A DNA stretch of 64,000 nucleotides from Patescibacteria group bacterium (GTDB taxonomy: Bacteria; Patescibacteriota; Microgenomatia; UBA10105; UBA927): positions 7,436 to 71,435 of the forward strand of contig DATKGN010000004.1 in assembly GCA_035510735.1 (NCBI GenBank), given 5' to 3'. Under the pieces are notes generated by a model, which worked only from the letters and a program-made list of their open reading frames with translations, was not told the origin of the DNA and made no database searches. Numbering within the stretch: the stretch's first letter is position 1; the number at the start of each line of letters is the position of its first letter. Positions 288 to 22,232 of the stretch are shown here, piece by piece. The position numbers were made by a program, and so were the translations under genes.

Positions 288-878
288 TCAGGATAATTCA
301 TGGGAGAGCAACGTAATAAGAAGCATGCTGCACCGCCGGGCAAGTACAACATCATAGAGGAATGTTTTTTCTTTACTGTATGCAATATCGCTCTTCATCC
401 AGGCCTCAAAAGATTGTTTATGATATCCCTCAAGAATCCACGGAGAGATAATGCCCGGTTTTATAACATGTCGCTTCATTTGCCGGGGTGTTAATTTTTT
501 TGCCTCGTCTACTGGTAACGGGCGGGGGCCAATAAGCGCCATATCGCCACGGATGACATTTATAAGCTGTGGCAACTCATCCAAGCCCGTATGGGCTAAA
601 AACTTACCTATGCGCGTAAACCGCGGATCATTGTGTATTTTAAACACGGGACCATTGGCTTCATTGAGATGTTTCAAACGGGCCTGCTCACAATCAGCGC
701 CGACACGCATAGTCCGGAACTTATAAATGAGAAAGTGGATGTTATTTTTTCCAACCCGTATTTGACGGAACAGAATTGGTAGCCCGCTGTCAAAAATAAT
801 GAATAACGCAATGAGGCCCATAACCGGCAGTGCAATGAGAAATACTATGACAACAGCCAAACGATACAAAACCTGCAT
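288..878 (-). CDS. Polyprenyl-phosphate sugar phosphotransferase of the bacterial sugar transferase family (small PglC/WbaP-C-terminal type). This is the likely priming enzyme of the glycan locus.
   Basis: The ORF is 288..1094. The conserved core (MQVLYRLAVV...DSGLPILFRQIRVGKN...FRTMRVGAD...PRFTRIGKFLAHTGLDELPQLINVIRGDMALIGPRP) begins at an internal Met at 876-878. Upstream of that Met the frame overlaps the aminotransferase gene ending at 889. One N-terminal TM helix is followed by the catalytic domain, as in PglC. Confidence 0.8.
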   Translation of the reverse strand: MQVLYRLAVVIVFLIALPVMGLIALFIIFDSGLPILFRQIRVGKNNIHFLIYKFRTMRVGADCEQARLKHLNEANGPVFKIHNDPRFTRIGKFLAHTGLDELPQLINVIRGDMALIGPRPLPVDEAKKLTPRQMKRHVIKPGIISPWILEGYHKQSFEAWMKSDIAYSKEKTFLYDVVLARRCSMLLITLLSHELS

Positions 879-888
879 AGATGCTCCT

Positions 889-2100
889 TTAGTGGACTCT
901 TGATAATTCACGGATACAACCCGCAATATACGCAATGTCTTTCTTTGTGAGCGTTGTTGATGATGGAAGATAGAGACCGTCGCGGCACAGCTGTTCTGAG
1001 ACCGGATATCGAACATTTTTAAATAAATGCCAGTACGGCGGCTGCACGTGAAGCGGTATAAAAAATGGTCTCGTTTCGATACCACGTGCTGCAAGAAGTA
1101 TCCTAAGATGGTTTTTATCCATACCGAATCTTTTCTTATTAATTAAAATGCCGAACATCCAATAACTGTGTTGTGTCGCGGGCGCTTCATACGGAAGCGT
1201 GACTCCCTGAATATCCGAAAGCAGTTGAACATACAACCGGGCGTTGGTTCTTTTTATACTAAGGAGTTTTGTAAATCGCTCCACCTGGGCCGTACCCACG
1301 GCGGCCTGGAGGTTGGTCATCCGGTATCCAAATCCAATCATCGTATGCCAAAAGTGCATCTCTTGGGTAAACGCATTATTATGAAGAAGCCTGAGACGAT
1401 CTGCAATCTCCTCATTATTTGTTACAACCATGCCACCTTCGCCGGTCGTAATGATTTTGTTTGCATATAACGAAAACGCGCCCACATCACCGATTCCGCC
1501 AACGGGTTTCCCGTGATACGTGGCACCGTGGGCTTCAGCAGCATCCTCCACAACCCACAACTCGTGTTTACGAGCAATATGCATAATCGTATCCATATCG
1601 GCAGGAGCCCCATAGGTATGAACCGCAATAATAGCTTTTGTCCTATCGGTGATATGTTTTTCAATATCTGATGCATCCATGTTCCATGTCGTAAGGTCTG
1701 CATCAATAACAACCGGTGTCGCCCCGCAATATGCGACCGCATTTATCGTTGCAATCATAGTGAATGTCGGAAGAATAACTTCATCACCCGGTCCAACACC
1801 CAAAGCAGCTAATGCCACATGGAGCGCGGACGTCCCACTGTTCACACTTATCGCAAATTTTGTTTTTGAAACTATTTGGGCAAATAGTTTTTCAAAACGT
1901 TTGACATAGTCGCCGGTGGACGAAATCCAGGAGGAAGAAATTGCATGCGTTACATACCGTATTTCCCGTGCCGATATATTCGGTTCTGAAACAGGAATAC
2001 GTCTCCGGCCGGCAAGCCGCGGCTCCCGTGTCGGGAAAAACGGTTTCATTGCATCAAGTTCCGAAGGCAATGTCTGATAAATCGGTGCTACTGTTTTCAT
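889..2100 (-). CDS. DegT/DnrJ/EryC1/StrS-family PLP-dependent sugar aminotransferase
   Basis: 403 aa with family-typical blocks (DEVILPTFTMIATINAVAYCGATPVVIDAD; AIIAVHTYG; GDVGAFSLYANKIITTGEGGMV). About 30 aa of N-terminal extension suggest the real start may be an internal Met. Confidence 0.85.
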   Translation of the reverse strand: MKTVAPIYQTLPSELDAMKPFFPTREPRLAGRRRIPVSEPNISAREIRYVTHAISSSWISSTGDYVKRFEKLFAQIVSKTKFAISVNSGTSALHVALAALGVGPGDEVILPTFTMIATINAVAYCGATPVVIDADLTTWNMDASDIEKHITDRTKAIIAVHTYGAPADMDTIMHIARKHELWVVEDAAEAHGATYHGKPVGGIGDVGAFSLYANKIITTGEGGMVVTNNEEIADRLRLLHNNAFTQEMHFWHTMIGFGYRMTNLQAAVGTAQVERFTKLLSIKRTNARLYVQLLSDIQGVTLPYEAPATQHSYWMFGILINKKRFGMDKNHLRILLAARGIETRPFFIPLHVQPPYWHLFKNVRYPVSEQLCRDGLYLPSSTTLTKKDIAYIAGCIRELSRVH

Positions 2101-2102
2101 AT

Positions 2103-2812: not shown

Positions 2813-4408
2813 TTAGTTTGCTGATATTTTTTGAAATGTCATAAGCACTGCATAACCGAAATTAACCGGTTTGTTGATTTTTCCGTACAGCGGGTTGTGC
2901 TTTAAAAAATACGACATACAATTCCCCTCGGCTGCATCAACCGTCGGATACCAAACGCATATCAGATAAACATACGGAGTGTTGGGTCGGTCAAGAACCT
3001 TGCGGTCTATGTCATTTCCGGGCGAAACTAACGGCATCGTATAGTGTGCATAATCCCGTAAATAATACAAAAACGGATAAAGAATGTAATTCGTATAGAT
3101 GTTAGGATACCGATACGCAAGCACCGTCATGTCACCCGTTGAAATGTTAGCGCGGGCCGACTCGCGGGCAATCGTAAACGCTACGGACGACGCAAGCGCC
3201 ACGTCGCGGCGCGGATACCGTATAAGATCCGACTGAATAGACCAGATATTCGTAATGAGATAGACAATCATGACACAAATAGCGCTCGCCACAATAACCG
3301 GCTGCTTTGAAGCAAATGCCAACCGCAGCGCGAGTGTTAACAGAAGAAAAAAGAACGGCAGAAAAACATTTAACCCATATACTTCAAGATCATGCCGGAA
3401 GAACAGGAGAAGTAATGATCCGAAAACAAGAGGCCATAACGGAACAAAATCAGTGACGGCACGGTAGTAGCGATCACTCTTTGACCGGAGATAGTTACCT
3501 AACCCGATAGGAAGGAGAACCCAAAGAGCGAATGCGCCTTCAAATATAAGTATGACACCCGCTCGTATATGAAAATCATCCCGATATAAACCGAATATGT
3601 TATCGATAAATGCCCTCCCATACCGGATGATGAGACGAACCGTTGCGATAAAACCCGCCGGAGGACCAAACGACTGCGAAACCAAAGCGCCATATGTTGG
3701 AAATCCGTGTTTTACCTCATATACCATAAAGGGGGCAAAGAACGGAAAAGCACATATTGTAAGACAAAATAATACGATGCCAAACGAAACAAGGTAATTA
3801 GTTTTCATCATGTTACGTATAAACCGAACGCCCATCACTATGTAGTAGGGAAGTAACAGTATCGGGGAAACATAAATCGATAACGCAACAGCATAGCAAG
3901 CGACCGACAACAGGTAGAATACAAAAGAGCGTCGCCGGAACGCGTTAAGAAGAAGAAGCAAAGAAATTGAAAGAAACAGCGTAAGCGTATGGGGCGCCCA
4001 GATCTGTCTGCTTTCAACAGTCATGACATATGATGTCGCAAATAAGAACGCCATGATGATTCCTGCGATATCATCCATTAACAACGCGGCAACCGACACC
4101 ATACACCCCATCACGGCAACATTCATGAATGCAAACGCAAATGTGATTGCTTCTGGTGTTCGGAGAACTGAGTAAAATCCCGCAAGAATGTAATAATACG
4201 TCGGGGGCGTTTGGAAATTACTCACCGACAAAAACGGGCCAACTGGCGGCCGCCAATTATTTTCAATAATACCACGCGCGATATACAGATCACCTGCCTG
4301 ATCGCCACGAAACGCTACCGTATCGTAAAATGAATAAAATCTTGCGTACAGCGCAATGCCAACAGCGACCGAAAACCCAATGATAATTATTACCTTTCGA
4401 ACATTCAT
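2813..4408 (-). CDS. GT-C-fold integral membrane glycosyltransferase (ArnT/PMT-like, GT39/GT83-type). It is a paralog of 7925..9499.
   Basis: It has at least 10 predicted TM helices. A first-loop motif FRGDQAGDLYIARGIIENNWRPPVGPFLSVSNFQTPPTYYY aligns with WEGDQGSDFLVAQQILHGQSQTLVGPPLNVTNFYTPPTYYY of the paralog. The ORF extends to 4486. The start was placed at the internal Met (MNVRKVIIIIGF) so it does not overlap the divergent wzm start. Confidence 0.6.
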   Translation of the reverse strand: MNVRKVIIIIGFSVAVGIALYARFYSFYDTVAFRGDQAGDLYIARGIIENNWRPPVGPFLSVSNFQTPPTYYYILAGFYSVLRTPEAITFAFAFMNVAVMGCMVSVAALLMDDIAGIIMAFLFATSYVMTVESRQIWAPHTLTLFLSISLLLLLNAFRRRSFVFYLLSVACYAVALSIYVSPILLLPYYIVMGVRFIRNMMKTNYLVSFGIVLFCLTICAFPFFAPFMVYEVKHGFPTYGALVSQSFGPPAGFIATVRLIIRYGRAFIDNIFGLYRDDFHIRAGVILIFEGAFALWVLLPIGLGNYLRSKSDRYYRAVTDFVPLWPLVFGSLLLLFFRHDLEVYGLNVFLPFFFLLLTLALRLAFASKQPVIVASAICVMIVYLITNIWSIQSDLIRYPRRDVALASSVAFTIARESARANISTGDMTVLAYRYPNIYTNYILYPFLYYLRDYAHYTMPLVSPGNDIDRKVLDRPNTPYVYLICVWYPTVDAAEGNCMSYFLKHNPLYGKINKPVNFGYAVLMTFQKISAN

Positions 4409-4442: not shown

Positions 4443-5210
4443 ATGAATACTGACGTACAACAGTATCTCGATCTCTTATGGGGCATGACGGAAAAAGAAC
4501 TGCGTGTCCGGTATAAATATACATTTTTTGGCTTTTTATGGATCGTCGTAAACCCGCTTCTCCAAATGTTCTTAATCGGATTTCTCCTGAGTTTATTTAT
4601 AAAACAATCGTCTGAACAGTATTATTTTCATCTATACACGAGCCTTCTTGTGTGGAATTTTTTTTCTCTTTCGTTGGTTAAAGCCACTCCGAGTATCGTC
4701 GCTGAACGATTTCTGATAAAAAAATCGATGTTTCCCCGATCTGTTATTCCTCTGTCTATTGTATTATCAAACGTCATCCATCTATTGCTGGGTATGGGGT
4801 TATTCGGCATTGTCATGATGATACTTAAAATGATGCCGGGTGGATCACTGCTGTATATACTATTCGGTCTTTGTTTATTGATAATCTTTACCTGTGGGTT
4901 TTGTCTTCTCACGTCCGCGTTGAATGTCCGCTTCCGCGATATTAAATTTATTATCGAAGCTTTGTTAGTATTATGGTTTTATGCAACTCCCGTTATCTAT
5001 ACGTTTTCCCTCATTCCGCAAAAATACATATGGATATGGCGTTTAAATCCTATGACCTCCATTATGCAGTTATTTCAATATGGTTTTATTAATGCTCCTC
5101 CTCCGGGCCCGGCAATGCTAAGCATTAATCTGATTATTATTGTCATTGTCGCATTTGCTGGTATTCGCGTATTTCGATCTGAAAGTAGTAATTTTGACGA
5201 CTGGGTTTAA
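4443..5210 (+). CDS. ABC-2 type polysaccharide/teichoic-acid export permease (Wzm/TagG-like)
   Basis: It has six TM helices and the signature LWGMTEKELRVRYKYTFFGFLWIVVNPLL. The ORF starts at 4356. The start was placed at ATG 4443 (MNTDVQQYLD). Confidence 0.8.
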   Translation: MNTDVQQYLDLLWGMTEKELRVRYKYTFFGFLWIVVNPLLQMFLIGFLLSLFIKQSSEQYYFHLYTSLLVWNFFSLSLVKATPSIVAERFLIKKSMFPRSVIPLSIVLSNVIHLLLGMGLFGIVMMILKMMPGGSLLYILFGLCLLIIFTCGFCLLTSALNVRFRDIKFIIEALLVLWFYATPVIYTFSLIPQKYIWIWRLNPMTSIMQLFQYGFINAPPPGPAMLSINLIIIVIVAFAGIRVFRSESSNFDDWV

Positions 5211-5225
5211 CCCAAACTAATACTT

Positions 5226-5927
5226 ATGAATAGCGCAATCAAGCTCACACATATTTCAAAAGAATATATTCTTCATCATGAAAAACCGACGTTGGTAGAA
5301 AAATTTGTCTCCGGAAAAGAAGAAAAGTTTGTCGCTCTTAGCCACATTAATCTTACGATATTCAAAGGCCAAAGGGTCGGCATAGTGGGCGCAAACGGAT
5401 CCGGAAAAACAACGTTACTTAAAATTATAACGGGAATAACAAGGCCTTCTTCTGGAGTTCGCAAAGCATATGGAAGATTAATTTCGTTAATAGACCTCGA
5501 TGCTGGATTTCAGGAGGATCTTACCGGCGAACAAAATATTTATCTCAACGGCATGTTGCTCGGTATGAAAAAACAAGAAATAAACCGCCATATTGAATCT
5601 ATTATTGCATATGCCGATATTAAACAGTTTATTGATGCACCGCTGTACACCTATTCTCAAGGGATGAAACTTCGGCTCGGAGTCTCTATAGCTATCAACA
5701 CAGATCCTGATATTCTCATTTTCGATGAAGGATTGGGAGTGGGGGATAAACAATTTAATAAACGGCTCCGACACACGCTTAAAACCTCTTTTCGGGACAA
5801 AACCATCATTATTGCAACGCACGATTTAGAACTCATCAAATATCAATGCAACAGGATTCTTATTATGGAACACGGAAAAATACTTCATGATGGCGGACCC
5901 CGTACGCTAAAATTATATGCCGCATAA
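5226..5927 (+). CDS. ABC transporter ATP-binding protein (Wzt/TagH-like) partnering the permease
   Basis: Walker A is GANGSGKTTLLKIITG. A degenerate signature/Walker B is YSQGMKLRLGVSIAINTDPDILIFDE. It lies directly downstream of the ABC-2 permease. Confidence 0.85.
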   Translation: MNSAIKLTHISKEYILHHEKPTLVEKFVSGKEEKFVALSHINLTIFKGQRVGIVGANGSGKTTLLKIITGITRPSSGVRKAYGRLISLIDLDAGFQEDLTGEQNIYLNGMLLGMKKQEINRHIESIIAYADIKQFIDAPLYTYSQGMKLRLGVSIAINTDPDILIFDEGLGVGDKQFNKRLRHTLKTSFRDKTIIIATHDLELIKYQCNRILIMEHGKILHDGGPRTLKLYAA

Positions 5928-7017
5928 AATTGATAATACGCACATGCCGATGATTGTCTATATAGTCCCCGGCTACCCCCCATGGAGCGCCGCTTCGGTG
6001 AATACACAGCGACGGAAACGCCTTATGGAAAAACTTGGGTATTATGTCCTATATATACAACATGAAGACCTCCGGTATGTTCATAATGTGATATCGATAG
6101 TAAAACGTCGAAAGAACATAAAGGCCATTATCATCCGGGCAGACGGCGGATGCGACGTTGACAAATACACGCTTCTAAAATTGTTGTTACCGAATATCCC
6201 GCTTATATGGGAAATACACGGATTTGCAGAAGAACAACTGACCGTTGAAAAAAATCTTTATGGAAAATGGTTCGTTTTAAAAAATAATACAAAACGCAGG
6301 ATTCTCTCCCGCCTCGTTGACTGTTGTATGTTTGTCTCCGAGGAACTCCGTGCGTTTGCCCGAGAAAAAATTACTGTTCGTCGATCTGTAATTATTCCCA
6401 ACTTTCTTGCAGACGAACACGCAGGCAACGCCAAACAATACTCTAACGCAATCATAGATGAATTACTACAAAACTATTTTGTTGTATTGTGGGGCGGTGA
6501 CGCCCGCATGCCATGGCAGGCTGTTGATACAATCTATTCGGTAGCAACGCGGATACATGAATTTGATAGGCGTATCGCGTTTATTGTGGTTGGCTCAAAT
6601 AGTTGGTCCTCTTATGGTCATATTCCAAATATGTTATGTATTAATCCGATGCCTCATGCCGATTTTATGCATCTTGTATCCAAAGCCGATGTATGTCTTG
6701 GCATCTATCATGAATCCGTTTATTTCCCGTTTTATTTTTATCCGATGAAAATTCTTGATTACATGTCAGTCGGCAAACCGGTAATTGCAACGCACCTGCG
6801 TCCAATTACCAGGTTAATTACTGATGGTGTCAATGGATTTCTTACCACAAACACGGTTAGCGATATAACAAAAAAAATTCTACTCATTAAACAAAACCGC
6901 CCTTTATCACGACGGCTTGCTCATGAAGCAAAAAAAACCGTCCAAAATAACTATTCAGAGCGTAATGCGAAACGCCAATATACACAATTATTCCTTTCTG
7001 TTAACGCGGGGATATAA
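5917..7017 (+). CDS. Glycosyltransferase, GT4-like (Glycos_transf_1 C-terminal domain)
   Basis: C-terminal block KILDYMSVGKPVIATHLRPITRLITDGVNGFL. The N-terminal half is divergent. Confidence 0.65.
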   Translation: MPHKIDNTHMPMIVYIVPGYPPWSAASVNTQRRKRLMEKLGYYVLYIQHEDLRYVHNVISIVKRRKNIKAIIIRADGGCDVDKYTLLKLLLPNIPLIWEIHGFAEEQLTVEKNLYGKWFVLKNNTKRRILSRLVDCCMFVSEELRAFAREKITVRRSVIIPNFLADEHAGNAKQYSNAIIDELLQNYFVVLWGGDARMPWQAVDTIYSVATRIHEFDRRIAFIVVGSNSWSSYGHIPNMLCINPMPHADFMHLVSKADVCLGIYHESVYFPFYFYPMKILDYMSVGKPVIATHLRPITRLITDGVNGFLTTNTVSDITKKILLIKQNRPLSRRLAHEAKKTVQNNYSERNAKRQYTQLFLSVNAGI

Positions 7018-7029: not shown

Positions 7030-7803
7030 TTATTTATGGGAAACAATAATTATGCGAGGAGACCGCTTAGACCACGGCCTCCGGTCATAATCACCGTATT
7101 CGTCATCGATAATAAACCCATATTGATGCAATAGAAATTCAAGCTCACTCTTTGCATACATATATTCAATCCGTTGCGAAATCAACCGCCTATTTTCTCC
7201 ATTGTTGGTTGCTATATCCCAGATAAATAGCTGATGATGCAACCGCGTTTTGGCGATTTTTTGGGAATATACCTGCCTCAAAATCGTTAGCTTCTCTTTG
7301 GGAAATTGTTTATGCTCATAGACCCCAAAATGACGCTCATCATTCTTTATGTTTGTATTATTGTAAACGTCAAGAATAAAATGCCCCCCTGGTAGCAAGC
7401 TCGATCTGACTGACCGCATGAGAGACGACTGCTCTTGTCTTGTCGCGGCCGGAAAACCCCACGGGCAAAATACTGCGTTAAAGCGGGTTTTCGGAATTGT
7501 AAATTTCGTCGCGTCACCGAACTGTAAAGTAATATTTTCTCTAATTGCGGGTTTCGCCGTTTTGCATTTCCTTTTTGCTTCTTGAAGCATCGCCCGGGAA
7601 ATATCTAGCCCCGTGATCTGAATTCCTGCTCCTGCAATCGGCAGAGTCAGTCGCCCCGTTCCGCAAGCTAACTCAAGCACAGGGGAGCCGAATCTGTTTG
7701 CCGTTGATACCCAAAAAGCAATATCTTCCGTTCTGTCTCTAAAATATAAGTCATAATACGGCGCAATATTTTGCCATTCGATGAGATTAGTATATGCTTT
7801 CAT
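7030..7803 (-). CDS. Class I SAM-dependent methyltransferase
   Basis: Motif I VLELACGTGRLTLPIAGAGIQITGLDISRAMLQEA, and a post-I acidic residue. 257 aa. Confidence 0.85.
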   Translation of the reverse strand: MKAYTNLIEWQNIAPYYDLYFRDRTEDIAFWVSTANRFGSPVLELACGTGRLTLPIAGAGIQITGLDISRAMLQEAKRKCKTAKPAIRENITLQFGDATKFTIPKTRFNAVFCPWGFPAATRQEQSSLMRSVRSSLLPGGHFILDVYNNTNIKNDERHFGVYEHKQFPKEKLTILRQVYSQKIAKTRLHHQLFIWDIATNNGENRRLISQRIEYMYAKSELEFLLHQYGFIIDDEYGDYDRRPWSKRSPRIIIVSHK

Positions 7804-14098: not shown

Positions 14099-15199
14099 TC
14101 ATCTGTTTTTACGATTTAAGAGAGCATTTTGTATATACAGACCCATATGCTTATGAAAATTTGCTTCACTATAATGCTCCGCGTGACGACGAATGAATAT
14201 CGGATTAAACCGTTTTGGATTAAACGTCTCGAGCACTGTCACGAGGGCTGCGACGGAATGTTCCGAATAAAAGACGCCGGTTTTTTTATCAATAACCGTT
14301 TCCTTCACGCCCCCGCCGCAATAAGCAATCACGGGCACTCCATGTGCCATTGCCTCAACCGGAGTAATTCCAAAGTCTTCACTCCGCGCTGTAAATAGTA
14401 ACGCAATCGCGTGTCGGTATAATTCTAGTTGCTGGGCATCATCCTGAAATCCTAAAAATTCTATTGTCGGACCTGCAATGTGCCGGAGATACCGTTCGTA
14501 TTGAACATCTATGGATACGCCTGCTATTTTAAGGCGCACACGCAAAACATTGCATGCATGAATCGCAATCTCAATTTCTTTTGAGGCATCAATGCGGGAA
14601 ATTATTACATAATACAAACCCTGTCTGGTTTGATGATACTGCGCTGGAATAATGACGGGGGGATAAATAACTTCCGATGATACACCACAAACATTCCCCA
14701 AAGATTGTTGAATATGTTTTGAACAAACGATAATATTTTTGTATTTTCGGAGACTTTTCTTGTATAAACGGGCCAACATCGGAGAGAGGGGAAGAATCAT
14801 CTGAATTTGAGTCTTTGGCCCCAGGTGAAACAAATTTTTCGGTAGCCCATGAATATATTGTATGTGCACGGGGTGTTCAACTTCGATTATATTGGACAAT
14901 AAATAAGCAGAACTTGATATCACAACGTCGTACTGTTCTAAATGGAGACGCCTCCAAACTAAGGGCGCCAGAAACTGAAAAAGGTACGCGTGTTGCGCCG
15001 CGGGGACTCGCTGGAATGGAGAACAAAATAAGTTTGTTTTTGACAATAAAGGAAAACGAGCCTCGACCATTGCATCGTCTTTGTAAGATGTGTAGACATG
15101 CGCTTTCGGATACAACCGGAGAAGCGATTGCAATACGCGTTCCGCTCCGCCAAATTCTACCAACACATCATGGACAATGGCGATTTTCATTTGCTTCAA
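14099..15199 (-). CDS. Glycosyltransferase family 4. It is a tandem paralog of 15196..16308.
   Basis: MKIAIVHDVLVEFGGAERVLQSLLRLYPKAHVYTSY aligns with MRVAIIHDVLVEYGGAERVLQSFLRLYPTAHVYTAY of the neighbour. The C-terminal GT1 motif is EDFGITPVEAMAHGVPVIA. Confidence 0.8.
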   Translation of the reverse strand: MKQMKIAIVHDVLVEFGGAERVLQSLLRLYPKAHVYTSYKDDAMVEARFPLLSKTNLFCSPFQRVPAAQHAYLFQFLAPLVWRRLHLEQYDVVISSSAYLLSNIIEVEHPVHIQYIHGLPKNLFHLGPKTQIQMILPLSPMLARLYKKSLRKYKNIIVCSKHIQQSLGNVCGVSSEVIYPPVIIPAQYHQTRQGLYYVIISRIDASKEIEIAIHACNVLRVRLKIAGVSIDVQYERYLRHIAGPTIEFLGFQDDAQQLELYRHAIALLFTARSEDFGITPVEAMAHGVPVIAYCGGGVKETVIDKKTGVFYSEHSVAALVTVLETFNPKRFNPIFIRRHAEHYSEANFHKHMGLYIQNALLNRKNR

Positions 15200-16275
15200 C
15201 GTCTAATAACACCTTCTATATAATGCTTCATCTCCCGCTCAAAACGCTCGCGATGGAATTGTTTTGCGTAATCATACAGTGAGGTTGGAATAAATTGTTG
15301 GGGTTTCAGGTTCTGCATGGTATGCACAAGTGCCTCTATAGTATATGAATAAAAAAATAATCCCGTTTTCCGGTTCTTGAGCGTCTCCTTCGCTCCGCCG
15401 CCATAATGTGCAATTACTGGGACGCCATAAGAAATAGCCTCGAGGGGGGCGATACCAAAATCCTCCTCTTTCGGCGTAAACAAAAAAGCTATCGCGTTTT
15501 TGTATAGGTGATGAATTTTTTTATCGGACAGGCGTCCTGTAAATTCGATCGTCGGTCCCGCCAGACTATACAGATGTTGGATATATCTTCCGTCGCTTCC
15601 CGCTCCGACTATCTTTAGAGGCGCCCTCATTCTATTACACGCACTTATCATTAATTCGAGTCCCTTCGTGTTATCAAGTCGGGAAACCGCAATATAGTAG
15701 TCTCCCTTATTATGTAGGGCGGGGTGGGGCGGGATAATCACCGGAGGATATATAACTTCAGACGGTACACCGCAAATACTCCTCATAGTTTGTTGCATAT
15801 GTTTTGAGTTAACAATGATATTCTGGTACCGTCGAAGGCTTTTTATATACGACCATGCCAATATGGACGTAAGTGGGAGTAGTTTTTGAATTTTCGTTTT
15901 TGGACACAGGTTAAACAAATTTTTCGGGGGACAGTGAATATATTGAATATGAACCGGGTGTTTAACGTTGATCGTGTTAGATAACCAAAAGGCGGAGCTC
16001 GATATAACAACGTCATATTGTTCTAAGTGAAGTCTACCCCAAATCAAAGGCGCAAGGAACTGAAAGAGATACCCATATTTGCCCAACCGTAGCGTTTGAA
16101 TAGGGGAGCAGTGGAGGTTATTTTTATTTAACGGCGGAAAAAACTCCCGCACCATCACCTCATCTTTGTAGGCGGTATATACATGGGCTGTAGGATACAA
16201 CCGCAAGAATGACTGTAACACGCGCTCAGCTCCGCCATATTCGACCAGGACATCGTGGATGATAGCAACGCGCAT
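15196..16275 (-). CDS. Glycosyltransferase family 4. It is a tandem paralog of 14099..15199.
   Basis: The ORF is 15196..16308. The start was placed at the internal Met (MRVAIIHDV), which removes the overlap with the upstream GT2 gene. The neighbour alignment is given under 14099..15199. Confidence 0.8.
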   Translation of the reverse strand: MRVAIIHDVLVEYGGAERVLQSFLRLYPTAHVYTAYKDEVMVREFFPPLNKNNLHCSPIQTLRLGKYGYLFQFLAPLIWGRLHLEQYDVVISSSAFWLSNTINVKHPVHIQYIHCPPKNLFNLCPKTKIQKLLPLTSILAWSYIKSLRRYQNIIVNSKHMQQTMRSICGVPSEVIYPPVIIPPHPALHNKGDYYIAVSRLDNTKGLELMISACNRMRAPLKIVGAGSDGRYIQHLYSLAGPTIEFTGRLSDKKIHHLYKNAIAFLFTPKEEDFGIAPLEAISYGVPVIAHYGGGAKETLKNRKTGLFFYSYTIEALVHTMQNLKPQQFIPTSLYDYAKQFHRERFEREMKHYIEGVIRR

Positions 16276-16280
16276 AATTT

Positions 16281-17168
16281 TTATTGTTGAAGGGTTTTCC
16301 AGTACCAATAATATATCCAGCCGATTTTATAAAAAAAGGGATAAATACTAAGCGTTATCACAAAAAGGACTCTTTTGTATAAAGACGGCAATATAAATAC
16401 TGCCTGTTTTATACATTGTATTTTAACCGTTACCGGCACTTTGTGGGGAGCAGAATGAACATTAATATGTTTTTTATCTAATGAGTAGTGATTGCTGAAC
16501 CCTGTATATATATTTCTCATCACAAGAGATATAAACGAATTTCTGGGTTGATACAACGCACCAATAGTTTCATCATAAAACATGCCATATTTCATACGAT
16601 AAAGCTGCATACCGATATCTATATCATCATCATTAAATATTTTCGGCGCCTGTATATCGAAAACAATGTGGTCAAATATTTTTTTGCGAAAACACACAAT
16701 ATCAAAATGTAGGACCATGCCACCCGAAAAACGTCTAAGTGATCGGTGATCATAAAAATGCTCTTTCATCCAAATGACATAAAAATAGTGTTGTACTTGT
16801 GCGTATATATTAAACGGGCAACTATTTACCAAATCTCCCATCACAAGATCAACCCGTGGATTTCCGACAAAATGCAAAAGAAATTTTTCCGTCGTGTTAT
16901 CGGTAATTATGCAATCGTCGTCGACAAACATAACTAAATCTCCGCTCGCGACACGGACTCCTTTGTCTCTTGCTTGTGGAACGGTCAATGACGTATGAAC
17001 GTATACAACCCGAATATTTTTAGGCACCCTGGGCACCTGCATTCTATGTGTTGATGAATCGATAATGATAATTTCGTCCGGGGGCCGTTGCTGCAACAAA
17101 ACACTCTCAAAACAGAGCATGAATAATTCATATCTATCCTTCGTTACAATGCAAACGCTTAACTTCAT
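16281..17168 (-). CDS. Glycosyltransferase family 2
   Basis: N-terminus LSVCIVTKDRYELFMLCFESVLLQQRPPDEIIIIDSS, and DxD in LVMFVDDDCII. Confidence 0.75.
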   Translation of the reverse strand: MKLSVCIVTKDRYELFMLCFESVLLQQRPPDEIIIIDSSTHRMQVPRVPKNIRVVYVHTSLTVPQARDKGVRVASGDLVMFVDDDCIITDNTTEKFLLHFVGNPRVDLVMGDLVNSCPFNIYAQVQHYFYVIWMKEHFYDHRSLRRFSGGMVLHFDIVCFRKKIFDHIVFDIQAPKIFNDDDIDIGMQLYRMKYGMFYDETIGALYQPRNSFISLVMRNIYTGFSNHYSLDKKHINVHSAPHKVPVTVKIQCIKQAVFILPSLYKRVLFVITLSIYPFFYKIGWIYYWYWKTLQQ

Positions 17169-17227: not shown

Positions 17228-18214
17228 TTAAACCCTCAATTGTTTCGCTATTTCTTTTATCGTTTCGGACGCCACATAAAGCTTATTTTTCTTTATTTCG
17301 TCTTTTGCTGTACACACAATCCAACAATCATTGCAGTTGTGTGCGAGAGGGATGAGCTTGTTTTTTGCCTGGGATGTCCATATTTCATCAAACGACTGAT
17401 TCCGAAGGTTTCCGATAGGCCACATTTTTAAATGACACATAAACACGCTGCCGAATGGGTCCATATAAAAAAAGTTTTCTCCAGCTCCGCAGGGGAGCGC
17501 ACGGTGATGTGACATCATATAATAATATGACTGTTTATTAAACCACGCTTTTGCCCATTCTTTCGGATTCACGGATTGCAGCTGACGCAAAAATAGCCAT
17601 TCAAACAGGTATTTGACCTCGGGGGGGTCCGGCCGCAACCGTTCCTTCTTTGTACCGAAATATACGGGAGAGTCGTGCACGACGTTTAACGAAAATTGTA
17701 TGCGTTGTGACTTGCTGTATTGATATACCTGTTGCAATTCGTGCTTATTTTGTTTCATGAGTGTATAAATTATGCCGATGTCTTTAACGTGTTTACGCTT
17801 CAACAAATCTACGGTATGCATAACTTTTTGAAATGCCTTGGGGACGCGGCGAATCTTCTCGTGCATCTCTGGCCCTCCGTCGAGTGATAAACGAAACGCG
17901 ATGTTTGGGTCGGCGACCATAATATCATCGATCTGTTTTTCTATGTTGTGATGCAAAAAACCGTTCGTTGTAATAAGGATTCGCGCCTTTGGACAGGACG
18001 TCCTGACCGTGCGAACGATTGAAGCCATATCCGGTCTCAGAAATGGCTCTCCGCCGGTCAAGTCAACCATTCTAAGAGATGGCGGAAGTTTTTTATACAC
18101 ATCGACCGGTAAAAAATCTATCCCCCGGTGTTTCCAGATGTCACACATCACGCACCGCGCATTACAAAGAAGGGTTACTGCGATAAATGCGCTTGTTGGA
18201 TACGCCTTATTCAT
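17228..18214 (-). CDS. Radical SAM enzyme with a C-terminal SPASM/twitch-like Cys cluster
   Basis: CxxxCxxC in IAVTLLCNARCVMCDIWKH. A GGEP-like motif is DLTGGEPFLRPD. C-terminal cysteines are CGAGENFFYMDPFGSVFMCH...NCNDCWIVCT. It is embedded in the glycan locus with no obvious precursor peptide nearby. Confidence 0.8.
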   Translation of the reverse strand: MNKAYPTSAFIAVTLLCNARCVMCDIWKHRGIDFLPVDVYKKLPPSLRMVDLTGGEPFLRPDMASIVRTVRTSCPKARILITTNGFLHHNIEKQIDDIMVADPNIAFRLSLDGGPEMHEKIRRVPKAFQKVMHTVDLLKRKHVKDIGIIYTLMKQNKHELQQVYQYSKSQRIQFSLNVVHDSPVYFGTKKERLRPDPPEVKYLFEWLFLRQLQSVNPKEWAKAWFNKQSYYYMMSHHRALPCGAGENFFYMDPFGSVFMCHLKMWPIGNLRNQSFDEIWTSQAKNKLIPLAHNCNDCWIVCTAKDEIKKNKLYVASETIKEIAKQLRV

Positions 18215-18279: not shown

Positions 18280-18765
18280 CTATAATAGGTTTACCTTTGT
18301 CAGACCATGGAGGTATGTAATCAACCTCGGCAAAGACCCGCGGCCCGACGATGAACGGCGGGGCTTTTGTCGCCGACAGAGCATGGCGGCGCAACTGATT
18401 ACCGGGAATACAAGCCCCCGTTTTTTAAGTATGTCACAATAAAACACCTGATGATCATTCACGTGTTCACCAAATTTTTTTTCACGGGGCAACACAAAAG
18501 GAATTTTTCCGGCAGCAATGGCCTGATATATTGTTGCCGGCCCGCCCTGACAAACCACAACCCGAGCTTTCTGTATATATCGCTGCATTCGCTGAAATGG
18601 AAGCGTCTGATAGAGGAAAACGTTTTTACCGGAAAGCGTGCAAGCGGTATCCCCATGTTGGAAAATAATGGCTTCATTGTGTTTTCGGATAAGTATAAGC
18701 TGTTCGACAAGATCTACCATCCGCCGGAAGGGGAATGGGGTAGTGCCAACGGTAATTAATATCAT
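18280..18765 (-). CDS. Alg13-like glycosyltransferase subunit (Glyco_tran_28_C; EpsE/Cps14G/PssE-type)
   Basis: MILITVGTTPFPFRRMVDLVEQL...VVCQGGPATIYQAIAAGKIPFVLPR...GEHVNDHQVFYCDILKKRGL is typical of the catalytic C-terminal half of bipartite UDP-GlcNAc transferases. Confidence 0.7.
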   Translation of the reverse strand: MILITVGTTPFPFRRMVDLVEQLILIRKHNEAIIFQHGDTACTLSGKNVFLYQTLPFQRMQRYIQKARVVVCQGGPATIYQAIAAGKIPFVLPREKKFGEHVNDHQVFYCDILKKRGLVFPVISCAAMLCRRQKPRRSSSGRGSLPRLITYLHGLTKVNLL

Positions 18766-19220
18766 AAGGTAGCACCTGTATATTTCCCGCGCTTGTAAAA
18801 CGCAAGTTGGCGTCTGCTCTGGACTAATAACACATCGACAATCGGTTCGACTAGCTTTCCCGAAACACTCGGATACCGAACAAAATCAAAAGGCTCAATA
18901 AATACCAGCCTAACGCCGAAAAGCTTGCCGATATAAAAAAAGGGCGGGGCGATGCCTGCGCCGCAGCTGATGAGAAGCGTGGGTTTTTCTTTTACTATGA
19001 CGCGCACCGCAATACCTATATTGCGAAGCGCATTAATAATATTTCTCGACTCTGGGTAATGTGCATAATAAATTCGCTCATTTTTTAACATGGAAACGAC
19101 ATCTTCCCCCGGAAACGTTACCCAAAAACGGCTGTATGTTTTCCACCAGGGCCTAAGCCGGAACATCTGATACAGATGGCCCCCGCGTGAGGTGATGATA
19201 CCTATTTTTGGTGCGTCCAT
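18762..19220 (-). CDS. Alg14-like glycosyltransferase membrane-anchor subunit (EpsF/Cps14F/PssD-type)
   Basis: KIGIITSRGGHLYQMFRLRPWW...PTLLISCGAGIAPPFFYIGKLFGVRLVFIEPFD. The ORF extends to 19274. The start was placed at the internal Met (MDAPKIG). Its stop overlaps the alg13-like start (ATGA-type coupling). Confidence 0.7.
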   Translation of the reverse strand: MDAPKIGIITSRGGHLYQMFRLRPWWKTYSRFWVTFPGEDVVSMLKNERIYYAHYPESRNIINALRNIGIAVRVIVKEKPTLLISCGAGIAPPFFYIGKLFGVRLVFIEPFDFVRYPSVSGKLVEPIVDVLLVQSRRQLAFYKRGKYTGATL

Positions 19221-20092
19221 GTGGTCATATGGTACGTCCATACACGAACAACCGCAAGCACAATATATAAACAAGGCAACATGAAAAAGTACGTTATCTG
19301 GAACGATGTAAGGTAGAACAGCTCTCTCCTCACGGCGCTTTGGATATGGAGGATAATTTTTTTTATATACACTTCACGAAGAGAGTCTGCCCCTGGCGCT
19401 CTGAGGGCCAACAACGCCTCACTCATCGCAATGCGACGGTGTTGATCTACAAACCCCGCAAACGTCTTACGTTCGTGGTGATATGCGACAATAGACGGAT
19501 CATAGACAATTTGGACTCCTTTTCTTCGCAGACGAAGCCCCAGCTCTATATCCTCAGATCCAACAGAGAGCTGTTGGGGAAACCCCCCGCTTGCTAACCA
19601 CACGCTCCGCGGCATGGAGGCGTTTTTATTATCGAACGTCCGCATAAAAGGGGCGCTTGTTGTGTTTGCAGAAATCCAATTAACATAATGATCGCCCATC
19701 ACATCGACGTAAATATTGCCGCGCGGGATACTTATTGTTCTTCCTTGCGCTACGCGCGCGGCGTTTTGTTCATCGTGGACCCGCCTGACATGAGATACAA
19801 AATTCTTCCCCGCAATACAATCATCGTCTAAAAAAACAATAATCTTTTTAGCGCTTTTAGAAACTGCTGTATTATAGAGCTTCGGATATCCCTGAACATC
19901 CGTCATAAAATAGCGGATGGTGAAAAATCGCTTAAATGAATTAACCACATCTCGTGTATTATCCGTCGACGCATTATCAAGCACTATTAATTCGTCATCA
20001 CGTTTCAGCTGTCCGACGAGAGATTGGAGGCACAGCCGCAAAAGCGGTGCCCTGTTTTTTGTTAGCGTAATAATCGAAACGGAAACATCCAT
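19202..20092 (-). CDS. Glycosyltransferase family 2
   Basis: VSVSIITLTKNRAPLLRLCLQSLVGQLKRDDELIVLDNASTDNTRD, and DxD in IIVFLDDDCIA. Confidence 0.8.
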   Translation of the reverse strand: MDVSVSIITLTKNRAPLLRLCLQSLVGQLKRDDELIVLDNASTDNTRDVVNSFKRFFTIRYFMTDVQGYPKLYNTAVSKSAKKIIVFLDDDCIAGKNFVSHVRRVHDEQNAARVAQGRTISIPRGNIYVDVMGDHYVNWISANTTSAPFMRTFDNKNASMPRSVWLASGGFPQQLSVGSEDIELGLRLRRKGVQIVYDPSIVAYHHERKTFAGFVDQHRRIAMSEALLALRAPGADSLREVYIKKIILHIQSAVRRELFYLTSFQITYFFMLPCLYIVLAVVRVWTYHMTTWTHQK

Positions 20093-20165
20093 AGCGAGCG
20101 AAGCTATTATACAACGCGCTTGTCTGCCGCTGACGGGATGATAAGTGTGGATACCATGCGTTTAT

Positions 20166-22232
20166 TTAGTGGATGTCGATAATTTTTTGTTTATAGTATC
20201 CACTAATTGGGAGGGGCTGGCTGGAGAAGAATAGACAATCTTCCCCTGCAAAAGGAAGTTGCTGGCACGCGGAAAGCGTCTTATTGGCCAAATTTTGATT
20301 CTTTAGCCTATAAAGCGCATATGAAGCAAGCTCCAGATGGTAATACGACCACACAGGCTCTAAGAGAGCAGCTTCCGATAACAACGGAACAACTGCGTTG
20401 GGGTCAGTTCTCATTACGCTGAGCCCCCAAAGATAATAAAATTTTGAAAAAAAGTGCCAATTAACAGCAATTGCCTTTGACCCGTGCATTAGTTCGATAA
20501 ACGCCCCAATGAAAAAGGGCGACTGATAATTAATTATTGGTTTGATAACAGACGTTTGTCGTTCCGTCGCGGTTTGAAACAATAAATGCATAAGGCCGGG
20601 CGCAGTTAACCGATCCACAAATTGCGGATGGGACGCAACAAATAAGATGTATTGTCTTTTATCATCTGTGCTTGCTGGGTCCAGTTGTATCGACTCTAAA
20701 AATAATTGGTTGGAAAGATGCGGGTTGTGATCTTCGGTTGCGCGAGCCAGCGCTGCCAAAACATCCGGGTCCCATTTGTGCATAAACAAAATTGCAGAAA
20801 TTTGCCAACGGGGAAAAGCGCGACTCGACGGTAACGAATCCAAATAATCCCTTATGTTTCTTTCGTTTGGAAGCGCTGTGACAAGCGTTATCGTGTCATG
20901 GGGTTTGTAGAATTGTAACGCTGTGTGTGTTGAGTAGACAATATAAAACAGCGCCAATAAACTCAAAAGAACGACCAGTAAGAATATTGGCCCAGCTCGA
21001 CGTGAGTCCGCATTCTCTCGATCTGTGTTCAACATTCCCAAAACCGCCCAAAACAATATCCACACGGTTAAAAAATCAAAAACCATTTCGTAAAAACTAT
21101 ATACAAATAGTAAAATAGCGCCATAGAACAACCCCCACCTAATTATATTATTTCTGGTTATATTTTTTGATCCACCCCGCCGGATTGCACGAAAGCGTTC
21201 CAGAAAAACCAAAATCATGAGAACAAAATACAACATGGCCCCAATAAGACCCATTTCTTCTAATATCTGCAGAGGAAAGCTGTGGGCCCATGTTGATTTA
21301 TCAGCTGTGACTGGTCCGATTTTCGACGCAATCACAAATGTTCCGGGGCCGCTTCCCACAATCGGACTTCTCATAAATCCCGCTATTGCGCCCTCCCAAT
21401 AACCAAACCGGCCATCGTTCCACGGTGGGCTTTTTATAATCTGCTCATGAAGCGGCGCCGTCATTGTGAACCGCGGCGCGTGGAAAAACCCCGTGGAAAT
21501 GCTAAAAACAGTGAGCACGGCCAAAGCAAACAGTAGCGCGCTTATAACAATGGGGAAAACCTTCCGATTGGTAAAACGGCGACGCCAAGCCAATAGCAAC
21601 AAAAATCCGAAAGAAAGCAACCACACGCCTCGGGAAAACGTTAAGACAATGAGGGCGCACCACAAAAAGTATGCGACGATACTGCGAACGGTTGGATATT
21701 GGAGAACATAAAAAGCAAACACCGGCAGAACTAAAAGAAGCAGGTTTGCAACATAATTGTGACCGTACGTTGCAGATAATAAATTCGCCTGCGGCAAAAA
21801 CCGGGAAAGACCAGGGAAAGCCAACAACACAAGCGACACCAGCCCGGTGAAAAGACCGAGAGACACAAAAGACCTAATAAACACGCCGTTGACCCTTGTG
21901 TCGCGCGAAAGACTTCTAAATAACAGAAAGGTCAAATATCCCTCGGCCAACCGCACGAGCCAAGACAAAGAGAGGGCGACGCTGTCGGAAAAAGCCCCCC
22001 GCAGACACGTATAAACTATTAAGCAGGTCCACGCAACGGCAACGGGCTTAGACGGGGCGCCTATATCGATTTTGCTAAAAAACAACAAACCATATAACAA
22101 AATCAGCGTAATTGCAAAAAACTCTTCAACCGCCGCCTGACTCCCGTCACCTAAAAAAAGAGAGATGCATAGGCACGTAAAAAAAATAAAAACAACTGCC
22201 CATTTTACAACCCCGCGGGACATCTTTTGCAT
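20166..22232 (-). CDS. Wzy/O-antigen-ligase-like polytopic membrane protein with a C-terminal extracytoplasmic helical-repeat extension
   Basis: The N-terminal roughly 420 aa have about 11 TM helices and the motif FSRGVWLLSFGFLLLLAWRRR (Wzy_C-like). The C-terminal roughly 260 aa are soluble and repeat-like. It is the second Wzy-like gene of the locus. Confidence 0.6.
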   Translation of the reverse strand: MQKMSRGVVKWAVVFIFFTCLCISLFLGDGSQAAVEEFFAITLILLYGLLFFSKIDIGAPSKPVAVAWTCLIVYTCLRGAFSDSVALSLSWLVRLAEGYLTFLLFRSLSRDTRVNGVFIRSFVSLGLFTGLVSLVLLAFPGLSRFLPQANLLSATYGHNYVANLLLLVLPVFAFYVLQYPTVRSIVAYFLWCALIVLTFSRGVWLLSFGFLLLLAWRRRFTNRKVFPIVISALLFALAVLTVFSISTGFFHAPRFTMTAPLHEQIIKSPPWNDGRFGYWEGAIAGFMRSPIVGSGPGTFVIASKIGPVTADKSTWAHSFPLQILEEMGLIGAMLYFVLMILVFLERFRAIRRGGSKNITRNNIIRWGLFYGAILLFVYSFYEMVFDFLTVWILFWAVLGMLNTDRENADSRRAGPIFLLVVLLSLLALFYIVYSTHTALQFYKPHDTITLVTALPNERNIRDYLDSLPSSRAFPRWQISAILFMHKWDPDVLAALARATEDHNPHLSNQLFLESIQLDPASTDDKRQYILFVASHPQFVDRLTAPGLMHLLFQTATERQTSVIKPIINYQSPFFIGAFIELMHGSKAIAVNWHFFSKFYYLWGLSVMRTDPNAVVPLLSEAALLEPVWSYYHLELASYALYRLKNQNLANKTLSACQQLPFAGEDCLFFSSQPLPISGYYKQKIIDIH

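Follow-up and report, generated by a model that had tools for sequence, protein, structure and literature searches.

A window of 64,000 nucleotides of contig DATKGN010000004.1 (assembly GCA_035510735.1), from an uncultivated bacterium of the Patescibacteria or Candidate Phyla Radiation (CPR), carries beside its dnaA gene a locus of about 23 genes, those lying left of the window edge included, that builds, exports and attaches a cell-surface sugar chain. We consider it reasonably probable that this locus is the main envelope-glycoconjugate cluster of the bacterium, inherited at a fixed site by dnaA and working in four stages. As a gene cluster it is of an ordinary kind, namely a modular surface-glycan cluster of low guanine-plus-cytosine (GC) content that depends on an ATP-binding cassette (ABC) exporter and includes a ligase of the Wzy_C family and decoration by GT-C glycosyltransferases, and it brings no new pathway logic.

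In the first stage, a PglC-type transferase would load a sugar phosphate onto the polyprenyl-phosphate carrier, the priming sugar probably being an amino sugar supplied by DegT aminotransferases and by an oxidoreductase encoded beyond the window; seven nucleotide-sugar (Leloir) transferases, four of family GT4, two of family GT2 and one split enzyme of the Alg13/14 type, would lengthen the chain, and a methyltransferase, a sulfotransferase and a radical S-adenosylmethionine (radical-SAM) enzyme may modify the glycan or its precursors. In the second stage, Wzm/Wzt would carry the finished lipid-linked glycan across the membrane. In the third, a Wzy_C enzyme, for which the long protein called WzyC2 here is the best candidate, would transfer the glycan en bloc, its outside TPR domain holding the acceptor; since CPR bacteria are not known to have lipid A, this acceptor would most likely be a surface protein. 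In the fourth, a GT2 enzyme of 233 residues would make a polyprenyl-phosphate monosaccharide, which two GT-C paralogs would use to attach side-branch sugars, either on the exported glycan or on protein itself. The analysis shows protein families, folds, conserved residues, gene order with its conservation, and composition, whereas the coupling of the modules, the succession of stages, the sugars involved and the acceptor are inferred.

Extent and setting of the locus

Twenty-one tightly packed open reading frames (ORFs) fill positions 288-22232 of the window, most of the gaps between them ranging from -73 to +73 bp with a largest one of 180 bp, and inspection of these gaps left no room for a further gene. 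Five transcription units are predicted, with alternating strands. Pfam was searched with these 21 ORFs and with 31 ORFs from the rest of the window, and NCBIfam with proteins of the locus. Every gene family that a preliminary description of this sequence had named was recovered by Pfam, the GT-C pair only below threshold, and all NCBIfam matches of the locus proteins stayed below the curated cut-offs. As judged from gene calls on contigs L082, L094 and L001, several genes start later than the mechanical ORFs, their corrected coordinates being 2813-4408 for the first GT-C gene, 4443-5210 for Wzm, 10513-12018 for the short Wzy_C protein and 12005-12856 for the DUF4330 protein. On the left, the locus extends beyond the window edge, as seen on the source contigs L094 and L095. 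On the right, it ends 220 bp before dnaA; the preliminary description had the locus abut oriC, and this short distance, the DnaA boxes and the turn of the GC skew, whose cumulative minimum lies at about 23-24 kb, confirm that it abuts dnaA and oriC:

22233-22452, no strand: intergenic stretch separating WzyC2 from dnaA, in which two DnaA boxes with one mismatch each lie at 22325-22343; right-hand locus boundary
22453-25120, + strand: replication-origin region with dnaA (22453-23817), three DnaA boxes (23835-23876, two of them perfect) and dnaN (24014-25120); context, not part of the locus

Export and terminal transfer

The exporter, the two Wzy_C proteins and the partner of the shorter one are encoded as follows:

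4443-5210, + strand: Wzm, ABC-2 permease of the glycan exporter (Pfam ABC2_membrane, 59 bits)
5226-5927, + strand: Wzt, exporter ATPase of 233 residues (Pfam ABC_tran, 78 bits)
10513-12018, + strand: WzyC1, short polytopic Wzy_C protein of 501 residues (Pfam Wzy_C, 56.4 bits, threshold 31.7)
12005-12856, + strand: DUF4330 protein with one N-terminal transmembrane helix by hydropathy (Pfam DUF4330, 38 bits)
20166-22232, - strand: WzyC2, long Wzy_C protein of 688 residues, adjoining dnaA (Pfam Wzy_C, 57.7 bits, threshold 31.7)

In NCBIfam, Wzm matches the galactan-export Wzm/RfbD and KpsM, and Wzt matches TagH and the galactan-export Wzt/RfbE with 154-164 bits, all below cut-offs; these best names belong to exporters of glycans and teichoic acids. 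Wzt consists of the ATPase domain only, without the C-terminal glycan-binding domain, which is a feature of a subtype and not universal; a methyltransferase and a sulfotransferase, which might act as chain-terminating caps, are encoded in the locus.

The Wzy_C domain is common to ligases, O-oligosaccharyltransferases and some polymerases. It is the domain of the WaaL ligases and of all known O-linking oligosaccharyltransferases, in which a conserved histidine of the large outside loop is reported to be required (PMC9829042). Besides, a Wzy_C-type transferase is the normal last step after Wzm/Wzt export, for instance in S-layer glycan clusters, and the O-oligosaccharyltransferases WsfB (of S-layer systems) and PglL are built from Wzy_C followed by a C-terminal TPR domain (PMC2943079). 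WzyC2 has this layout, with a WaaL-like membrane domain, an extra transmembrane helix (residues 414-439, approximately) and a C-terminal TPR domain in which the pair C656/C666 is invariant among its homologs; the extra helix and the invariant cysteine pair suggest that the TPR domain lies outside the cell. H317, R201 and R275 occur without exception in the 15 homologs of WzyC2 that were aligned, H317 being the candidate equivalent of the ligase histidine, and the family profile matches both WaaL (7tpg, 1.6e-4) and consensus TPR proteins (5e-10). In the AlphaFold2 model (pLDDT 78), the extra helix is followed by a helical-repeat domain; the Foldseek matches of the full-length model are TPR proteins and WaaL is absent from the top 50, the TPR domain having dominated the search, so that the link between WzyC2 and WaaL rests on the sequence profile. 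WzyC2 thus looks like a ligase or O-oligosaccharyltransferase, and is a clear candidate for the final transferase.

The shorter WzyC1, which shows no BLAST similarity to WzyC2 and had no match in the PDB, carries the histidine-containing motif PVHFAYLQ, as read from its sequence, and may be either a ligase or a polymerase. Short Wzy_C proteins of about 480-520 residues with a single-pass DUF4330-like neighbour occur in six loci, namely those of the window (10513-12856), L082 (12413-14756), L086 (4942-7244), L089 (18626-20940), L091 (14712-17127) and L092 (20112-21935), and the stop and start codons of the two genes often overlap. In such a pair, the Wzy_C protein could act as ligase or as polymerase and its neighbour as a partner in the periplasm.

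As to the route by which the glycan is assembled, the preliminary description had seen in the locus an unusual mixture of ABC-dependent and Wzy-dependent pathways. What defines the Wzy-dependent one is a Wzx flippase together with a Wzy polymerase, in most cases joined by Wzz. No family match to a Wzx (MOP-family) flippase or to Wzz/PCP was obtained in the 21 locus ORFs or the 31 other scanned window ORFs, so a Wzy-dependent route is not established by them, and the DUF4330 protein with its one helix is the only candidate for a Wzz-like partner in the locus. The supposed clash arises from reading Wzy_C as a polymerase, a domain better read as a ligase in this context; since S-layer and rhamnose-polysaccharide loci of Gram-positive bacteria, for which the same mix is described, and the Pgf system provide published precedents, the combination of modules represents a known modular design, and the idea of an unusual mixture could not be upheld.

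A reading close to that idea is nevertheless to be weighed, according to which the locus would hold two or more independent pathways: one for an ABC-exported polymer, one in which the short Wzy_C protein would polymerise a repeat-unit glycan on the outside, with DUF4330 as chain-length partner, and possibly a stand-alone protein O-glycosylation by GT2 and GT-C enzymes, similar to Ppm1/Pmt or Pgf. The five transcription units on alternating strands and the lack of relation between the two Wzy_C proteins speak for it, as does the keeping of the short Wzy_C/DUF4330 pair in six loci, which recalls the polymerase WpsI and the Wzz-like WpsH of Lactococcus lactis beside an ABC exporter (PMC9574508); in the same line, Pgf acts on proteins with one GT-A and two GT-C enzymes, independently of any polymer. 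However, besides the missing Wzx/MOP and Wzz/PCP matches, the locus of this genome contains a single priming transferase, and DUF4330 has one transmembrane helix where Wzz has two. Such a division into separate pathways is conceivable, and we hold it to be doubtful.

Synthesis of the glycan

The genes attributed to priming, sugar synthesis, cytoplasmic chain assembly and modification are the following:

1-134, - strand: 5' part of a second DegT-family aminotransferase (396 residues, reading frame checked), which runs off the window (L094 7752-8942)
L094 8939-9949, beyond the window: GFO_IDH_MocA oxidoreductase (336 residues)
288-911, - strand: PglC-type polyprenyl-phosphate phosphoglycosyl transferase, priming (Pfam Bac_transf, 163 bits)
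889-2100, - strand: DegT/PglE/LegC-type sugar aminotransferase (Pfam DegT_DnrJ_EryC1, 402 bits)
5917-7017, + strand: GT4 glycosyltransferase a (Pfam Glyco_trans_1_4 and Glycos_transf_1)
7030-7803, - strand: SAM-dependent methyltransferase (Pfam Methyltransf_25, 66 bits)
9680-10516, + strand: sulfotransferase (Pfam Sulfotransfer_3, 104 bits)
12850-14097, - strand: GT4 glycosyltransferase b (Pfam Glycos_transf_1, 98 bits)
14099-16308, - strand: GT4 glycosyltransferases c (14099-15199) and d (15196-16308), tandem paralogs (Pfam)
16281-17168, - strand: GT2 glycosyltransferase b, with a C-terminal hydrophobic hairpin by hydropathy (Pfam GT2, 60 bits)
17228-18214, - strand: radical-SAM/SPASM enzyme (Pfam Radical_SAM and SPASM)
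18280-19274, - strand: split glycosyltransferase, with an Alg13-like catalytic half (18280-18765; Pfam Glyco_tran_28_C) and an Alg14-like half (18762-19274; Pfam Alg14)
19202-20092, - strand: GT2 glycosyltransferase c (Pfam GT2; NCBIfam EpsD-like, 113 bits, below cut-off)

The priming enzyme is small (196-207 residues, 207 in the gene call), with a single N-terminal hydrophobic segment by hydropathy, and its NCBIfam matches are EPS_sugtrans and the C-terminal domains of WbaP and WcaJ, all below cut-offs. For the DegT enzyme at 889-2100, NCBIfam ranks LegC first (356 bits, cut-off 420), then PseC, then ArnB (243 bits). The second DegT aminotransferase and the oxidoreductase are also found together on L095 (2432-4629), and a DegT aminotransferase paired with a GFO_IDH_MocA oxidoreductase is typical of 3-amino-sugar synthesis. 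GT4c and GT4d share 56% identity (E=3e-149). The Alg13/Alg14-like pair is of the PssE/PssD (Cps14G/Cps14F) type, with NCBIfam scores of 103 bits for PssD (cut-off 110) and 67 bits for PssE (cut-off 120). The best PDB match of the radical-SAM enzyme is the sugar-nucleoside decarboxylase BlsE (E=2e-7), and this enzyme is among the best-conserved of the locus, with identities of 85% in L082, 64% in L086 and 44% in L091.

Part of the locus might, in principle, be an anti-phage or conflict system, given that the Pfam family GT4-conflict matches GT4c and GT4d (39.5 and 28.7 bits) and that PADLOC flags the radical-SAM enzyme weakly as pVip (24 bits) and the methyltransferase as mad2. The same regions of GT4c and GT4d nevertheless score higher for the generic Glycos_transf_1 (77-91 bits), and the PADLOC matches cover the generic radical-SAM and SAM-methyltransferase cores only, no other components of such systems having been found. 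This defence reading was dropped, its probability being close to nil.

Elsewhere in the window (46046-54082) lies a complete mevalonate-pathway operon followed by undecaprenyl-diphosphate synthase (UppS), the operon genes encoding an HMG-CoA reductase, an HMG-CoA-synthase-like protein, a thiolase, a mevalonate kinase, a GHMP-kinase/NUDIX fusion (50890-52401) and a diphosphomevalonate decarboxylase. The operon and UppS are the supply line for the polyprenyl carrier.

The GT-C pair and its sugar donor

Decoration of glycans outside the membrane is usually the work of a polyprenyl-phosphate-sugar GT2 with a GT-C enzyme encoded beside it, and three genes of the locus are of these types:

2103-2804, - strand: GT2 of 233 residues, polyprenyl-phosphate sugar synthase similar to DPM1, ArnC and GtrB (Pfam Glycos_transf_2)
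2813-4408, - strand: GTC1, GT-C paralog 1, 531 residues, about 11-12 transmembrane helices by hydropathy (PMT_2, 20.5 bits, below threshold)
7925-9499, + strand: GTC2, GT-C paralog 2, 524 residues (PMT_2, 21.4 bits, below threshold; AlphaFold2 model and Foldseek)

The seven best PDB sequence matches of the 233-residue GT2 are the Dol-P-Man synthase of P. furiosus (2e-24), ArnC (2.5e-17 to 2.2e-16) and GtrB sll0501 (1e-14), so that its assignment as a polyprenyl-phosphate sugar synthase, already made in the preliminary description, is sound; its NCBIfam matches, all below cut-offs, are PgfS, ArnC (second-best, 63 bits), PpgS and AglJ.

GTC1 and GTC2 are paralogous over their full length (27% identity, E=3e-42). 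Their own PMT_2 scores fall short of the Pfam gathering threshold of 26.1 bits, they have no NCBIfam match, and the exact GTC2 protein is annotated as hypothetical protein VMR81_01875. Among relatives of the family, however, 54 of 72 match PMT_2 at E<=0.01 (best 2e-11), and a search with the family profile gave 163 cluster representatives at E<=1e-30 and 4287 at E<=1e-3. As the family profiles (alignments A1 and A2) gave no meaningful match among PDB sequences, a fold comparison was needed to place the family. The AlphaFold2 model of GTC2 (pLDDT 77.5, pTM 0.80) retrieved with Foldseek 44 top PDB matches that are all GT-C enzymes, with E-values down to 6.5e-6 and TM scores of about 0.5, including STT3/PglB/AglB, ArnT (rank 7), ALG9/12, PMT, AftB and Emb. 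Moreover, D38, in the motif GDQGxD 12 residues past the first transmembrane helix, is invariant in the 72 family members, GTC1 carrying the same invariant aspartate of the first outside loop, and so is the pair C480/C493 in the C-terminal outside domain of GTC2. The loop of D38 is predicted to face the outside, from the lysine-rich N-terminus predicted inside only. Taken together, this evidence indicates that GTC1 and GTC2 belong to the GT-C glycosyltransferases, in an uncurated branch rich in CPR members. The preliminary description had named two paralogous GT-C enzymes, while allowing that they could be non-glycosyltransferase membrane proteins; the paralogy, the PMT_2-matching relatives and the fold of the GTC2 model favour the former.

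GTC1 lies directly upstream of the 233-residue GT2 in the same operon, 8 bp apart, an adjacency also present in L082 and L086, and both GT-C enzymes would use a polyprenyl-phosphate-linked sugar donor. Aside from this, in L093 (13902-16121) a DPM1-like GT2 and a polytopic protein of about 500 residues form one ORF of 739 residues, the two being separate adjacent genes in L092 (14558-16804); the membrane part of the fusion has a WGDE motif after a transmembrane helix and no Pfam match. It was considered as a Rosetta-stone fusion for the coupling of GT2 and GT-C and is kept as no more than a lead, since this membrane part shows no relation to the A2 family (hhalign probability 0.2, no match by hmmsearch).

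The operon GTC1-GT2-DegT also lends itself to another interpretation, in which it would be an Arn-like lipid modification system that transfers an amino sugar onto a membrane lipid and alters the surface charge, independently of the polymer genes. Its three enzymes correspond in type to the products of arnB, arnC and arnT; ArnC comes second for the GT2 both in NCBIfam (63 bits) and in the PDB (2.5e-17), ArnB is the third-best NCBIfam match of the DegT enzyme with its 243 bits, and ArnT figures among the fold matches of GTC2. Nevertheless, with equivalog cut-offs at 529 and 631 bits, the scores fall far short, the best PDB match of the GT2 is the Dol-P-Man synthase, the DegT enzyme is nearer to LegC and PseC, and neither ArnA (decarboxylase/formyltransferase), ArnD nor ArnE/F was found; in addition, Patescibacteria are not known to have lipid A. 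An Arn-like function is therefore very improbable.

Inheritance and composition

The closest DnaA proteins among the GTDB species representatives are 43-53% identical to that of the window and, the clade being absent from these representatives, relatives were sought by exact-protein look-ups. Those compared are the sister species GCA_964385705.1 (L082), L086, and the more distant L089, L091, L092 and L093. The DnaA of the sister species is 97% identical in protein and 84% in DNA; from DegT through Alg13, all 17 visible genes occur there in the same order with 64-90% protein identity, and a long Wzy_C protein, 65% identical to WzyC2, adjoins dnaA. The only visible difference in content is the PglC gene, which sits between both DegT genes in the window. 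The synonymous divergence (dS) from the sister species is about 1.0 for dnaA and 0.5 to more than 3 for the locus genes, thereby bracketing dnaA, with one gene left without estimate through saturation and old allelic exchange or mosaicism compatible with the saturated values. As dN/dS amounts to about 0.05-0.2 in the locus genes versus 0.024 in dnaA, the locus tolerates more amino-acid change.

In L089, L091, L092 and L093, whose DnaA and VirB4 are 70-79% and 73-78% identical to those of the window, synteny extends over dnaA, dnaN and the type IV secretion block, and a long Wzy_C protein (26-30% identity) and a glycan locus lie 0-3 genes from dnaA. In these loci the short Wzy_C/DUF4330 pair and GT4/GT2 enzymes recur and other genes differ, for example with WecG and an epimerase replacing the amino-sugar and ABC genes; in every case the GC content of the glycan locus is 6-12 points lower than that of the flanks. 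Several samples contain exact copies of DegT or DnaA, surrounded by the same genes. No integrase or transposase family was detected by Pfam among the 21 locus ORFs, and the only tRNAs of the window lie at 62 kb, none of them flanking the locus.

Regarding composition, for which the remaining 42 kb of the same window served as the baseline, GC amounts to 42.5% in the locus and 40.7% between 4000 and 18000, against 47.5% in the rest. GC at synonymous third codon positions (GC3s) is 0.405 in the locus versus 0.461 in the rest (Mann-Whitney P=6e-4), and the codon-usage distance of the locus exceeds 999 of 1000 permutations. The deviation is carried by the 12 core genes from Wzm to GT2b (GC3s 0.377 versus 0.461, P=8e-5), whereas the outer genes (0.442) do not differ significantly from the rest (P=0.14). 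The AT-richness is thus real yet limited to a core of about 4.4-17.2 kb, so the preliminary description, which had seen the whole locus as more AT-rich and had considered that its composition could instead equal the genome average, stands for the core as measured against the rest of the window, and not for the outer genes. Two ORFs outside the locus have GC3s values far below any locus gene, namely 0.26 for 62553-63485 (310 residues, no family match) and 0.32 for 34610-34987 (23S-rRNA-intervening-sequence protein), so that compositional heterogeneity is not unique to the glycan locus. As a separate matter, the plus-strand blocks 4443-7017 (Wzm-Wzt-GT4a) and 7925-12856 (GTC2-sulfotransferase-WzyC1-DUF4330), both inside the AT-rich core, are head-on to replication from an origin on the dnaA side, and both keep this orientation in the sister species.

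These data bear on the possibility of a genomic island, a cassette that was acquired recently by horizontal transfer or that varies between strains. The AT-richer core with its deviating codon usage, the difference in inner gene content at DnaA identities of 70-79%, and the presence here of PglC, absent from the locus of the sister species, would agree with such an origin, the more so as the low GC of S-layer and O-antigen clusters elsewhere has been read as lateral transfer (PMC2943079). Against it stand the identical order of 17 genes in a sister with dnaA dS of about 1 and locus dS not systematically higher, the same site, frame and GC dip in five related lineages, the failure to find an integrase, a transposase or a flanking tRNA, the normal GC3s of the outer genes and the exact DegT/DnaA copies with the same neighbours in several samples. 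A recent import is very improbable. Where surface-glycan loci diversify over long times, a lowered GC and a content that is mosaic among relatives are what one usually sees, and these do not point to recent transfer. The compared genomes indicate that the locus is an old resident of the dnaA site with no sign of recent import, its site, outer frame and AT-richness being ancestral for the clade and its inner content turning over slowly. The horizontally exchanged or strain-variable cassette of the preliminary description is supported in part, with turnover of content over long times but no sign of recent acquisition: the suggested comparison across relatives revealed no replacement in the sister species (17 of 17 genes kept), and inner genes replaced where DnaA identity is 70-79%. 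The position at the origin is conserved in the clade and no oddity of this genome.

Beyond this clade, a Wzm/Wzt-like pair, 27-42% identical to that of the window, was noticed 5-9 kb upstream of dnaA in five Saccharibacteria genomes (L018, L024, L025, L036 and L081), a hint that many Patescibacteria may have genes for glycan export close to the origin.

Related systems and weighing of the scheme

Among known systems, the S-layer glycan (slg) clusters of Geobacillus stearothermophilus NRS 2004/3a and Paenibacillus alvei, which unite a primer of the WbaP/hexose-1-phosphate type, Wzm/Wzt, a methyltransferase and a Wzy_C transferase at low GC (PMC2943079), share with the locus a primer of the polyisoprenyl-phosphate hexose-1-phosphate-transferase type and not WecA, Wzm/Wzt, cytoplasmic glycosyltransferases, a methyltransferase, a Wzy_C transferase with a C-terminal TPR domain as in WsfB and PglL, tight overlapping genes and low GC, slg lying below the genome average. 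They differ in that the present locus shows no rml genes, no S-layer gene nearby and no C-terminal glycan-binding domain on Wzt, has a small PglC-type primer in place of WbaP, and possesses in addition the GT2/GT-C enzymes, the sulfotransferase, the radical-SAM enzyme and a second Wzy_C protein.

Rhamnose-rich cell-wall polysaccharide loci (L. lactis cwps, streptococcal gac/rgp, enterococcal epa) combine ABC export with decoration by GT-A, flippase and GT-C, some strains adding a polymerase and a Wzz-like partner (PMC9574508). Common to both are the ABC export of a lipid-linked backbone, a GT-A synthase with an outside GT-C enzyme, and a variable part inside a conserved frame, whereas here no rhamnose genes, GtrA/Wzx flippase or LCP ligase are seen, Wzy_C ligases take the place of LCP attachment, and the GT-C enzymes are PMT_2-like instead of the YfhO or WpsJ type. 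The ABC-dependent O-antigen pathway of Gram-negative bacteria likewise ends Wzm/Wzt export with a Wzy_C-domain ligase, the profile of WzyC2 matching WaaL 7tpg; it differs by its lipid A-core acceptor, which Patescibacteria are not known to have, by its WecA primer and by a ligase devoid of the TPR domain present here.

As for the fourth stage, GtrB/GtrA/GtrC, ArnC/ArnT, Ppm1/Pmt, PpgS/Rv3779 and PgfS/PgfM1/PgfM2 share with the locus a GT2 of this type with an adjacent GT-C enzyme bearing an invariant aspartate in its first outside loop, and Pgf of Streptococcus mutans, where one GT-A and two GT-C enzymes act on proteins, also shares the two GT-C paralogs; here, in contrast, no flippase was found and the GT-C family forms a separate CPR-rich branch near or below the PMT_2 threshold. 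Finally, the assembly of mycobacterial arabinogalactan and lipoarabinomannan proceeds through cytoplasmic GT-A/B steps, Wzm/Wzt-type export and then outside GT-C enzymes (PMC7261415), from which the locus is set apart by export scores far below cut-offs, by the lack of decaprenyl-phosphate arabinose (DPA) or other arabinose genes and by a Wzy_C ligase replacing Lcp1.

Several points weigh against the four-stage scheme. The GT2/GT-C module is incomplete as seen in the window, because no flippase of the GtrA, Wzx, MATE or ArnE/F type was found by Pfam in the 21 locus ORFs and the 31 other scanned ones. Since Wzt is without the glycan-binding domain, cap-and-export as in Geobacillus is not expected. 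WzyC1 and DUF4330 resemble a polymerase/co-polymerase pair as much as a ligase. In the sister species, the PglC gene is absent between the two DegT genes (L082 2808-2813), and tblastn gave no match on that contig. No sugar specificity can be assigned, since every NCBIfam match is below its curated cut-off, and the analysis brought up neither an acceptor protein nor a gene for an S-layer protein or an LCP ligase. Lastly, the modules could serve two or more glycoconjugates, as nothing ties them to one product.

A further extension of the scheme would see in the locus a serotype-like diversification site, with a fixed frame (the long Wzy_C-TPR protein by dnaA and the short Wzy_C/DUF4330 pair) in which inner glycosyltransferase and GT-C genes are exchanged over time, and with a product that is O-linked to surface proteins, for example the type IV secretion pilins across the origin, and sets the specificity for host attachment or phages; the PMT_2-like pair would then be an unclassified, metagenome-abundant family that glycosylates protein directly. 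This extension is speculative, and we judge it rather unlikely.

Other features of the window

Beside dnaN, a type IV secretion system (T4SS) block (25133-34585) encodes a VirB4-like ATPase, a TraC-like protein of 219 residues, a PrgI-domain protein, a VirD4-like coupling protein and two proteins of 811 and 215 residues (25133-28212) without family matches; it is syntenic in L089, L092 and L093, with parts in L002 and L005, and three T4SS-pilin genes are scattered further on, beyond the block (42075-43419 and 54446-55153). Between block and pilins lie a 1353-residue protein with a single C-terminal hydrophobic segment (36429-40490) and a polytopic protein of 513 residues (40494-42035), neither with a Pfam match. 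A transfer-messenger RNA (60250-60652; Rfam, 129 bits) has a predicted tag peptide of unusual length, 31 residues, with smpB just upstream (59714-60157).

Significance for the Patescibacteria

Patescibacteria are tiny, many of them live on host cells, and next to nothing is known of the chemistry of their surface; a search of the available literature returned no relevant description of glycan loci or O-antigen ligases in this group. For one lineage of these bacteria, the locus supplies the parts of a surface glycoconjugate in concrete and fairly complete form. It also brings to light a GT-C family that is well populated and uncurated, with an invariant aspartate and cysteine pair, and, being adjacent to dnaA with changing inner genes, it is a handy marker for surface diversity in metagenomes.

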